From a virus (taxonomy: Duplodnaviria; Heunggongvirae; Uroviricota; Caudoviricetes): 15,071 nt of DNA. The DNA is taken from IMG/VR virus record IMGVR_UViG_2713896831_000009, one strand, 5' to 3'. Numbering within the stretch: the first letter of the stretch is position 1; every line of letters starts with the position of its first letter. Position numbers: made by a program. Positions 6,601-9,600 of the stretch are shown here, piece by piece.

Positions 6601-9600
6601 TTTCGGTGCCCCCACCCAGCCCACCATAATTTGGGTATAGCTGAGTTGTAGCAACAAAAAAGACGCTAACGCGCCAATTGTCGCCGTATGCAATTCCAGG
6701 ACGCCAATCCCGACACCCACTTTATAAGGTGCCTGAACAGTGTAACGTCCCGGAATGGCAGAATCAATGTGCTGGTGGTCCTTCACACTCAACAAAATCA
6801 CGCCTGAATTTCCACAAAGGACTAAAGCACTCATGCGGGTAGTCTTTGCGAAGATAGATAACGCGCTGTGTTTCTGGCTCCCAACGAATAACATGGACAT
6901 AAAGCCCTCTTCCGTCACGAAACCAGCGGTTAAGTTCCTGCACAACTCGCCCCCCACAGTCAGGTAAAGTTCTCTGTGGTTACTTACAGCCAGGTGATTT
7001 GGTAATCTGCATTCATGCCGTAACAACAGGTGTTCAGCGACGCTGACCACCAGCTGTTGCGACAAACGGTTATTTGCCGTTAAACTGTTCATGCGTTAGT
7101 TTCTCCACAGACACAAAACGCCACGACGCCCGGAGCTGCACACTCGCGGGCGTCACTCTTTTCTGGAGCGCAAAAGATTTTGTAGACCAGTGCTGCATGC
7201 TCCTGGAGCTTCGAAATTGACAGATACAACTCATCATTAATTGCTGTCTGCTCGTGTGGCTCCACTACCCCATCTTCGATTGCCGAACGAATCTGCTTTG
7301 AGTAACTCCCGATCTGTTCGATGACTTCCAGCAGGCGCTGGTTTATATCGGCGTTCTCTACTTCCTCAATTTCAGGAAGCGATACAAACACCCCACCAGC
7401 AGACTGTGCGACAGCATCCGCAATGTAGTGAGTGCCAGCCGCGCGCTGTAAAATCATTGCCCATCCCAGCGGGAAAATCTGATCGCCATCTGCACGAAGG
7501 CGGTTGAATAAAGCGTTCTCTGTTACATCCAGCCACTCAGCAGCTTCAGCGTACCCCCCCGGCAACGCCGCGATAGTTTTTCTGACAGCTTTCACGTACC
7601 ACTCAGGCTGTTTTTCTACTTTCCAGTGATGCTTACCCACGGTTAGCCTCATCGTTCTGTGGTTAAAAATTGAAGGTGTTCTGTTAATCTTTCGGATAGA
7701 TATCCGGTCTTAAGTCAGATTTCGTAATTGCACCTGACGTGCATTGCTCAAGTTTTTTAGCCAGCACAAAACTGGCTTTTTTATAACCATTGAAAACCAG
7801 CCGTAAGTAGCCTGGTGTTGAGCCAACTTTTCCGGCCAACTCGCCCTGCTGTTCTTTGGTTAAAGAGTCCCAATACGCTTTCATACAATATGTACCTCCG
7901 ATGTACATATTACATGATTGAGATGAACCTTCAAGATACTTGTACCCTATCGGTACAAAGGTTTTAATTTCGTTATGAAAACAGTCCATGACATCCGGCG
8001 GTCTAACGCCAGAAAACTGAGAGATGGTGTTGGCGGGAATTCTTCCTTTGCCACCATGATTGATCGCGAGCCAACCCAGACCAGCAGGTTTATGGGAGAT
8101 GGTGCTACTAAAAATATCGGTGACAGCATGGCACGGCACATCGAAAAATGTTTCGACCTGCCTGTCGGATGGCTTGATCAAGAACACCAGACAACAAACA
8201 TCACAAAAAAACCTGATGTTTCAATTACTAACAAACAAATAACGTTAGTCCCTGTCATATCATGGGTACAGGCCGGAGCATGGAAAGAAGTTGGCTATTC
8301 TGAGGTTGATTTGAGCACAGCAGAAACTTATCCCTGCCCTGTACCCTGTGGCGAAATGACTTATATCTTGCGGGTGATTGGTGATTCAATGATTGATGAG
8401 TACCGCCCGGGAGACATGATTTTTGTTGATCCTGAAGTCCCTGCCTGCCACGGTGACGACGTTATTGCATTGATGCACGATACAGGCGAAACCACCTTCA
8501 AGCGGTTGATAGAAGATGGAACACAGCGTTACCTCAAAGCATTAAACCCAAACTGGCCTGAACCTTACATTAAGATCAACGGTAATTGCTCTATAATTGG
8601 TACAGTGATTTTCTCAGGAAAACCAAGAAGATACATAATAAAGGCCTAATCAATATTTATAACCTGCTTCGGCAGGTTTTTTTATACTTGACAATGTACC
8701 CTTGGGATACATAATGTATCTAAAAGAAACACAACACAGGCAAGATTAAACAAAATTTGGTTGTAACACGGCGTATGGCACATGCGTCGTTAGCGGTCTG
8801 GGGACGTTAAAGGGGACAATCCACTCCTTGCTCGGGCAAACAAACCAGGTAGCCGGAATGTGCAAGTCAATGATAATGCTGATAAGACGCCTAACCAGCG
8901 TGGCGATCCGGTTTGACGCCTGGGAAGAGACCAGGGTGCAACGATGAGGGTATTTATGGAGCCGCGACAAAGTGTGGTGCCGTAACTGGCTAAGTGCTCT
9001 CAGCGTTGTGGTAATCCGCGAAATGGCGCGGCGGTAAGTATGGCGGGGTTACTCTTTCCCCGTTGAGGACACCGGATTGTCAGGTTGACCATACGCCTGA
9101 GTGACAACCCCACCACAACAGCCACTGCTTTGGCGGTACCAGTTTGTACACTTGCTTCCGGCTGGTACCGCTCTTTTTACAAAACAGAGAAGAGCATCAC
9201 CGGACGACGGGCTCATAACCCAATCCATCCGGGCGGCTGCCACCGCAGGTGTTCTTCTCTGTTTTGTGGAGAAACTAATCGGCCTTGCAGGGTCGATATG
9301 ATGAGGAGCAACAAAATGGCTAGCGAACGCAGTACTGATGTGCAGGCATTTATCGGGGAGCTGGACGGCGGCGTATTTGAAACAAAAATCGGCGCAGTTC
9401 TCAGTGAAGTCGCTTCCGGTGTGATGAACACGAAAACCAAAGGTAAGGTCTCACTCAACCTGGAAATCGAACCATTTGATGAGAACCGTGTGAAAATCAA
9501 ACACAAACTCTCATATGTTCGCCCGACTAACCGCGGGAAAATTTCCGAAGAAGACACCACCGAAACGCCGATGTATGTCAATCGCGGTGGTCGCCTGACT

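Follow-up and report, generated by a model that had tools for sequence, protein, structure and literature searches.

A modular, structured non-coding leader with homology to the dicF locus in the early-left operon of a lambdoid Escherichia coli prophage

The DNA analysed here (the window, 15,071 nucleotides (nt) of IMG/VR virus record IMGVR_UViG_2713896831_000009, Caudoviricetes) is an SfV/e14-type lambdoid Escherichia coli prophage, with an insertion site adjoining yjjG/rimI. Its early-left operon begins with an untranslated leader (8716-9315) that lies between a pL-type promoter and the first protein gene, yfdP. This leader is a mosaic: structured RNA modules, each exchangeable on its own, follow one another in the order A, B, hairpin and C. 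Its locus is homologous to the dicF locus of the Qin prophage. The genes and signals that frame it are as follows.

7975-8649, + strand: ymfK, gene of a LexA-family, cI-like repressor, divergent from the cro-like ymfT (PGAP annotation)
8661-8685, + strand: intrinsic terminator closing ymfK (tImm-like; also given as 8661-8678), stem AACCTGC/GCAGGTT followed by a T run, directly before the promoter
8688-8715, + strand: pL-type sigma-70 promoter, TTGACA-16-CATAAT, with 11 of 12 consensus positions
8695-8711, no strand assigned: operator TGTACCCTTGGGATACA, TGTACC-N5-GGTACA, for the cI-like repressor; a palindrome of 17 base pairs (bp) between the promoter hexamers, with one mismatch
9316-9678, + strand: yfdP, first protein gene of the early-left operon yfdP-yfdQ-yfdR and onwards (PGAP annotation of the identical chromosomal locus)

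A near-consensus promoter overlapped by an operator palindrome had already been pointed out in a reading of the window made without database searches (the sequence-only reading), and both are present at these positions. The record of phage Ayreon annotates a promoter at the counterpart of pL, from which transcription would start near 8722. Two more copies of the operator lie in the cI/cro intergenic region, at 7941-7957 (no mismatches) and 7891-7907 (one mismatch). With up to three mismatches allowed, the window holds 12 operator matches, compared with 4.8 +/- 2.0 in shuffled sequences, and none of 200 shuffles reached 12. An exact repeat of the 10-mer GATACATAAT was also seen, with one copy at 8630-8639, where the cI-like gene ends, and another at 8706-8715, the -10 region of pL.

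The start codon of yfdP is the ATG at 9316, not 9317, and the genes of the operon run toward the integrase. PGAP annotated no N homologue in the window and, in E. coli chromosomes, no gene between 8650 and 9315. A promoter scan found no promoter-like site between the hairpin and yfdP, so that yfdP would be expressed only via read-through from pL. The sequence-only reading had described about 450 nt of leader without a credible open reading frame (ORF); the non-coding part of that description holds, while the untranslated leader is longer, about 600 nt up to yfdP. Parts of a 681-nt query (8650-9330) were matched in 4751 of 5426 complete E. coli genomes, and at least 80% of the query was matched in 891. 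Phages Ayreon and cdtI carry this leader at 98% identity.

Stop-free frames do occur on both strands of the leader, and two of them match PHROG families. The leader might thus encode small proteins, one of 66 amino acids at 9101-9301 (+ strand) and one of 64 amino acids at 9049-9243 (- strand), with matches to phrog_33599 (E = 1.8e-15) and phrog_3651 (E = 4.9e-38), and hypothetical proteins are annotated over the leader in the records of Ayreon, cdtI, mEp460 and 2H10. However, tblastn matches of the candidate frames in relatives fall into different frames, with an amino-acid identity (41-56%) far under the DNA identity, and the length of the T tract differs among relatives, which shifts the frames. 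The frames also cross covarying RNA helices and the borders of recombining modules, no Shine-Dalgarno sequence precedes them, and PGAP calls no gene there. Coding by the leader is hardly credible in the light of these observations. Since the frames (9049-9301, both strands) are not conserved between relatives, phrog_3651 and phrog_33599 were probably built on spurious ORF calls, and the 'hypothetical proteins' annotated over the leader are probably not genes. Two further coding candidates were rejected. A small membrane peptide in module C (TTG at 9152, 49 amino acids) is not kept in frame in relatives, and the interior of the stem is replaced in phage record L132 (L numbers denote such records throughout). 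An ORF with a Shine-Dalgarno sequence and ATG in the enlarged hairpin loops of Erwinia, Izhakiella and Trabulsiella is shifted in frame by the length of the T tract, and its bases form an extended stem.

When phage records were searched with 8720-9316, the relatives found differed from one segment to the next. The parts of the mosaic are given below.

8766-9004, + strand: module A, a multi-helix pseudoknotted RNA of about 240 nt, beginning about 45 nt past the presumed transcription start (covariation, homologues)
9005-9119, + strand: module B, a four-way-junction (cloverleaf-shaped) pseudoknotted RNA (covariation, homology to the 5' flank of dicF)
9120-9132, + strand: linker AGCCACTGCTTTG, which replaces 28 nt of Qin, namely a 16-nt spacer and DicF nt 1-12 (K-12/P1 alignment)
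9133-9178, + strand: hairpin and T tract, a predicted intrinsic terminator, where DicF sits in Qin (5' arm homologous to DicF nt 13-29)
9174-9297, + strand: module C, a stem of about 25 bp, then the motif GGAGAAAC and a small hairpin at 9278-9297 (RNAfold, relatives)

Covariation across relatives, which the sequence-only reading had proposed as a check on the leader, is strong in both A and B. The structure of A is made up of the following elements.

8769-8774/8784-8789, + strand: helix H1
8797-8800/8846-8849, + strand: base of helix H2
8848-8866, + strand: invariant stretch GGTAGCCGGAATGTGCAAG
8887-8890/8898-8901, + strand: helix H4
8893-8896/8910-8913, + strand: pseudoknot, H4 loop AACC with GGTT
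8919-8923/8931-8935, + strand: helix H5, loop GAAGAGA
8946-8954/8993-9001, + strand: terminal helix, GAGGGTATT/AGTGCTCTC in the window, in general AGAGCAYT with AGTGCTCT

In an alignment of 23 divergent sequences, 99.2% of the cells in H1, H2, H4, H5 and the pseudoknot are paired; 10 pairs, with 47 cells, have changed on both sides, a level that none of 500 shuffles reached. The pseudoknot itself reads CACC/GGTG in most sequences and AACC/GGTT in the window. The window is itself part of this alignment, and the covariance model derived from that alignment gives 154.9 bits for 8766-8957. An exact search with the 19-mer core of A returned 123 viral contigs, which fall into 44 clusters below 93% identity. 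In P1, A lies between trnI and ban, directly after tRNA-Ile, and in phiV10 and O157 typing phage 9 its end coincides with the start of tRNA-Arg; the terminal helix stops a few bases short of B or of the tRNA. Among 46 distinct contexts of A, two lead into B, seven lead into tRNA-Arg and three lie behind a tRNA, and the rest lead into other non-coding cassettes. These other cassettes have the same GTTGTGG/CCACAAC closing helix, some with canonical T-arm sequences. Kinship of A with RNase P RNA was considered for its apparent rnpB motifs and rejected, as BLAST gave only 7-9-mers.

The cassettes downstream of A (L235, L152, L243, L229, L206, L200, L219 and L223) have only the GTTGTGG(TGA)...(TCA)CCACAAC helix in common with B. 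Since the B model matches true B copies only, these sibling cassettes are not detectably homologous to B beyond the closing helix. Some contain the tRNA T-arm GGTTCGATTCC. None of the cassettes has an Rfam match at gathering score, and together they look like arrays of tRNA-derived or tRNA-like units.

Module B follows A directly in the window and consists of helices P1 to P5 and a pseudoknot.

9005-9012/9112-9119, + strand: closing helix P1, GTTGTGGT / ACCACAAC
9016-9020/9027-9031, + strand: helix P2, CCGCG/CGCGG
9032-9035/9071-9074, + strand: helix P3, CGGT/ACCG
9044-9048/9058-9062, + strand: helix P4, a variable hairpin with C/U-rich loop, carried on P3
9075-9084/9096-9097 and 9102-9109, + strand: helix P5, GGATTGTCAGG / CC..TGACAACC
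9038-9043/9089-9094, + strand: pseudoknot, GTATGG/CCATAC (P5 loop)

Copies of B were collected by a pattern search of viral contigs and species-representative genomes, and both the A and the B set rest on exact-pattern seeds. The copies come from seven genera (Escherichia, Shigella, Citrobacter, Serratia, Trabulsiella, Erwinia and Izhakiella) and from P1 and P7; B is also found in a Rac-like phage, as a 5'-truncated copy, and in SfV/e14-type phages. In an alignment of 22 non-redundant sequences, 97.5% of the cells are paired with 11 compensatory pairs, which none of 500 shuffles reached, and no slid register approaches this pairing. P1 and P7 alone provide two double changes, GCATGG/CCATGC against GTATGG/CCATAC and CGGT/ACCG against CGGC/GCCG. 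The covariance model of B, for which the window was among the aligned sequences, gives 140.1 bits at 8999-9125, the sole copy that it finds in the window. G-U pairs on the + strand are common in both A and B, in places invariant, which points to the strand transcribed by pL as the functional RNA strand.

In every copy of B examined, a terminator hairpin of hypervariable sequence follows 10-60 nt later. The hairpins include the Qin DicF type, the window type, the P1 type and at least six others. Because B precedes a variable hairpin in every lineage, B and the terminator form a conserved unit in which DicF is one occupant of a variable slot. DicF, among the oldest known bacterial small RNAs (sRNAs), thus fills one variable slot behind a much better conserved B. 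A search for riboswitch-type alternative pairing of B with the arms of the terminator turned up only mismatched options of 4-6 bp, none of them conserved.

Several observations on other records concern this slot. A G/U-rich arm, UGCUGUGUGUAGUC, recurs before many different hairpins (L035, L050, L144, L173, L182, L200 and L239) and might represent the seed of a distinct sRNA family; it is missing from the window type. In L145, recorded as an Actinobacillus phage, positions 2488-2950 hold a B truncated in its 5' strand, followed by a tandem duplicate of the sRNA/terminator unit. The early-left region of L145 is Rac-like, with a DicA-type repressor followed by Kil and exonuclease VIII. With 85% identity to E. 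coli sequence, its DNA is unusual for a phage whose recorded host belongs to the Pasteurellaceae.

The perfect 10-bp stem and U tract that had been noticed at 9133-9178 were recovered, with arms GCGGTACCAG (9133-9142) and CTGGTACCGC (9162-9171) and TCTTTTT at 9172-9178. The hairpin folds at -21.2 kcal/mol with 13 pairs (10 perfect plus extensions) in RNAfold, against -8.9 +/- 2.7 in shuffles. A G+C-rich hairpin followed by UCUUUUU predicts intrinsic termination from the sequence. The loop is C/U-rich and 19 nt long, and a simple terminator scan missed the hairpin because the loop exceeds 8 nt. An operator half-site TGTACA had also been placed in this loop; the hexamer is there (9145-9150), but an operator-like full site is not, and by our own estimate a lone TGTACA in 600 nt is within chance. 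A boxA-like CGCTCTTTTTACAA at the terminator was treated as chance, as relatives read GCCCTTTTT. Cleavage of the linker between GC and UUU would fit the RNase E site rule, an assignment modelled on the documented processing of DicF (PMC5069750).

The relation of this hairpin to DicF is close at the level of the locus. Over 9005-9127 the window shares 89% identity with the 123 nt that directly precede dicF in Qin of K-12, and 9129-9145 agree with DicF nt 13-29 in 16 of 17 bases (both by BLAST). The 5' arm of the DicF terminator reads UUUGGCGGUAUCAG, and its counterpart at 9129-9142 reads UUUGGCGGUACCAG. As in Qin, module B stands directly before the hairpin, inside a repressor-controlled prophage operon. 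The claim of the sequence-only reading that the sequence leading into the hairpin is nearly identical to the DicF core is therefore borne out as homology of the locus, which is much stronger than that reading could show, but not as membership of the DicF sRNA family.

Could the hairpin nevertheless be a functional DicF orthologue, an Hfq-dependent sRNA that blocks ftsZ translation and division after induction? Its 5' arm and its place behind the same module B as Qin dicF would agree with this, and its loop is C/U-rich like that of DicF and could pair with Shine-Dalgarno-type sequences. However, the Rfam DicF model (RF00039, gathering score 48 bits), the check that had been proposed, gives no match at E<=10 in 8600-9400, although it scores 76.7 bits on K-12 DicF as a positive control and 58.9, 43.5, 38.8 and 37.8 bits on other variants in the same slot. 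DicF nt 1-12 (UUUCUGGUGACG), the single-stranded 5' arm that pairs with xylR and pykA (PMC5069750), are deleted in the window together with the 16-nt spacer (alignment gap against K-12); the roles of the DicF 5' and 3' regions are taken from the same paper. The DicF segment AGUUUUACUCCG, which pairs with the ftsZ ribosome-binding site (ftsZ -13..0), reads AGUUUGUACACUUG in the window, and the pairing core (CUCCG in the loop) is absent. Against ftsZ -35..+15, the window hairpin pairs no better than shuffled sequences, with duplex energy at or below the shuffled mean (a fraction of 0.50-0.87 of shuffles do at least as well), and the best predicted duplexes avoid the ribosome-binding site. This comparison was limited to the translation-initiation region, since full-length RNAduplex was uninformative (z = -1.3 for DicF itself). 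In addition, the same stem carries a wholly different loop in Citrobacter and in L035. An sRNA that inhibits ftsZ, as had been suggested, finds no backing in these comparisons, and a functional DicF orthologue is very improbable. The hairpin is a 5'-truncated, loop-replaced derivative of the DicF-type slot and probably exerts no control over ftsZ.

Downstream of the hairpin, module C has a stem core of ACAAAACAGAGAAGAGCA (9179-9196) paired with TGTTCTTCTCTGTTTTGT (9250-9267), and 9173-9320 folds at -61.6 kcal/mol (RNAfold). The arms change together in relatives, as in L132 (ACACAACTGAAAAGAGCA/TGCTCTTTTCAGTTGTGT), L143 and L050, and C is joined to differing first genes. This covariation and the different downstream genes indicate that C is an RNA element and not part of yfdP. 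Its stem resembles an RNase III target and may be cut as one.

Several database searches were carried out on the leader. With all Rfam families, C4 and isrK were the sole matches at gathering score, both outside the leader, and at E<=10 nothing credible was found on its + strand. Neither A nor B matches an Rfam family, and nine other A loci likewise gave none on A or on the neighbouring cassettes. STnc100 (RF02076) has no match in 8600-9400, the models of C4 and of its a1b1 targets (clan CL00128) have none in the leader, and the tRNA and tmRNA models of Rfam have none at E<=10 in 8600-9400; ARAGORN found 0 genes in the window. The AgvB and Pas sRNAs were set aside, being in Rfam or in the late region and without a match to the leader. 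The dicF-dicB spacer of Qin with its RNase III stem (L007, 2433-2642) and its equivalents (L029, L131, L145 and L128) score 30-39 bits with STnc100, against a gathering score of 47, and STnc100 may be a relative of this spacer element.

Elsewhere in the window, 6544-6732 (- strand) holds a C4 antisense RNA (80.7 bits, 6544-6631) and isrK (56.7 bits) in tandem, in the pR-side operon. This layout resembles the immI region of P1 (c4-icd-ant). As PGAP draws the coding sequence of an 'ash family protein' (6256-6801) across C4 and isrK, the start of that coding sequence is probably placed too far upstream.

The cloverleaf outline of B and the tRNA neighbours of A bear on an alternative in which A and B act in trans, early after induction. 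They might be tRNA-shaped decoys or inhibitors of host tRNA-targeting or RNA-sensing defences, or RNase P-processed C4-like antisense RNAs, and their position in the leader would then serve only for immediate-early expression. B does have the topology of a cloverleaf, with a 7-8-bp closing stem, three arms and a loop-junction pseudoknot where the tRNA elbow would be. A abuts tRNAs, ending at the start of tRNA-Arg in phiV10-like phages and beginning after tRNA-Ile in P1; tRNA-Arg is present in 7 of 46 A contexts, and neighbouring cassettes contain the canonical T-arm and the common GTTGTGG/CCACAAC helix. The promoters in both settings are repressor-controlled (pL in the window, Pban in P1), and the loops and junctions of A and B are near-invariant, as would be expected with a specific partner. 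However, none of ARAGORN and the Rfam tRNA, tmRNA and C4 models recognises A or B, no conserved 3' CCA follows the closing stem of B, and no target or partner was identified for either module. B was never seen without its following terminator, which indicates a function linked to position, and B is tRNA-like only in having four helices round one junction. We consider action in trans unlikely, and for the hairpin, as for both modules, an effect on other molecules is hypothetical.

A broader suggestion can be made with some diffidence. A, B and the GTTGTGG/CCACAAC cassettes might together be an undescribed superfamily of tRNA-associated pseudoknotted phage RNAs with an activity of their own (modification of polymerase, decoy of defence or processing enzymes, or catalysis) beyond that of passive leader structure, exchangeable in the immediate-early transcripts of lambdoid, P1-like and epsilon15-like temperate phages of enterobacteria. 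We regard this as a possibility worth stating, on the doubtful side.

The position of A and B ahead of a terminator bears on a second alternative, which had been raised in the sequence-only reading as an N-independent antitermination/processing leader. A and/or B would be a cis-acting put-like antiterminator of the kind found in HK022, in which nascent RNA binds polymerase and read-through replaces the missing N. Put function is blocked by the zinc-finger mutation rpoC Y75N. As with put in HK022 and HK639, a structured RNA stands at the start of the pL transcript past an early promoter, no N homologue is annotated in the window, and terminators lie further on; the terminator inside the operon makes read-through necessary. 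A starts about 45 nt after the presumed start of transcription, and a promoter-like match was found upstream of 15 of 46 other A copies. At the base of the first hairpin, H1 of A and stem I of put (HK022 and HK639) have ACGGCG..CATGCGTCG..AGCG in common, and GGAAGAG of the H5 loop also occurs in HK639 put. For phage LLS, with a yfdP/Q/R-type early-left operon and no N homologue, put-like antitermination was suggested by its authors (PMC12315714), which also counts in favour.

However, the tests of homology to put were negative. With filters off, the A model reached at best -0.6 bits on the HK639 leader and found nothing on HK022 putL, the B model had no match in HK639 or HK022, and BLAST of put against the leader gave a 9-mer only (E = 2.7). 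The H1 bases in common with put covary within the A family and so are not conserved as sequence. In size, put has about 70 nt and two stems (PMC9378689), whereas A (about 240 nt) and B (about 115 nt) are two to three times as large and both pseudoknotted. Nor are A and B confined to promoter-proximal positions: A of P1 stands behind trnI, at a long distance from the promoter, and B of Qin comes after three ORFs. The absence of both modules from SfV counts further against antitermination. Thus, membership of the put family falls away, and put-like antitermination by A or B has, in our estimate, a small chance. The processing half of the earlier suggestion is the better supported, given the dicBF-like architecture. 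Phages of the yfdP/Q/R early-left type have no N homologue (PMC12315714), and A and B provide concrete, deletable candidates for how such early operons pass internal terminators.

On balance, we lean, with modest confidence, towards reading 8716-9315 as the non-coding leader of the early-left (pL) operon, processed and attenuating in the manner of dicBF. In this model, pL would fire once the LexA-like repressor is inactivated, and A and B would fold during transcription. A fraction of the polymerases would stop at 9133-9178, which would yield a non-coding RNA of about 450 nt in abundance and restrict expression of yfdPQR and the later genes, while the polymerases that read through would make the mRNA. 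RNase III would then cut the mRNA off the leader in stem C. RNase E would cut the linker between B and the hairpin, and RNase P may cut on the 5' side of B, which would leave stable A, B and hairpin RNAs.

Several points weigh against this reading. The strong conservation of loops and junctions in A and B is left unexplained by the model and suggests a specific partner. SfV lacks A and B, which are thus dispensable for this operon layout, and other phages carry A with neither B nor a terminator close by. As a terminator the hairpin is less than ideal, with its loop of 19 nt and a C that breaks up the T tract, and the model has to assume the efficiency of termination and all cleavage sites at the locus.

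Among known systems, C4 of P1/P7 (RF01695) and the CI RNA of P4 are regulatory RNAs cut from prophage leader transcripts by RNase P. Like the leader modules, they are structured RNAs inside an early prophage transcript, closed by a G/U-rich stem of the GGUGG/CCACC type. In contrast, no C4 model matches the leader, B has four helices and a pseudoknot where C4 has a long stem with two hairpins, and B has no conserved CCA and no identified target repeats. SfV (L003, 3098-3884) has the same immunity region and hairpin, but a convergent two-ORF insert and an STnc100-like cassette (3742-3865) replace A and B; its hairpin is preceded by TTTATGCTGTGTGTAGTCCTGGCGG, with a longer GCUGUGUGUAGUC arm in front of it.

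The ban leader of P1 and P7 contains an annotated 'dicF-like region', which is the same element as module B (75% identity in P1); the label is based on sequence similarity only, with no structure or function named. There, B lies about 100 nt past a repressor-controlled promoter (the C1-controlled Pban in P1) with a terminator hairpin next, as in the window. The ban operon also carries A, which is larger and more widespread than B and often stands beside tRNA genes. The order in P1 is different (B, terminator, tRNAs, tciABC, trnI, A, ban), the hairpin after B is unrelated in sequence, and identity to the window is 75-78%.

The closest comparison is with the dicBF operon of Qin. Downstream of a repressor-controlled early promoter, both loci have B (89% over 123 nt), a hairpin terminator in the sRNA position (5' arm 16 of 17), a long stem and the first ORF, in the same order. 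Unlike Qin, the window has neither the 16-nt spacer nor DicF nt 1-12, its hairpin differs in the loop and 3' arm, and the DicF model has no match. The long stem between dicF and dicB (GTGAATTTTGTGATG / CATCACAAAATTCAT) has the position of C with unrelated sequence. The unit follows three small ORFs and precedes dicB in Qin, whereas in the window it lies in the 5' leader after A and precedes yfdPQR. At Qin, RNase III produces the 72-nt DicF at this stem, RNase E forms the DicF 5' end and termination forms the 3' end of the 53-nt species (PMC5069750). Because the architecture of the window matches that of the dicBF operon, where processing is documented, a processed, attenuating leader is favoured.

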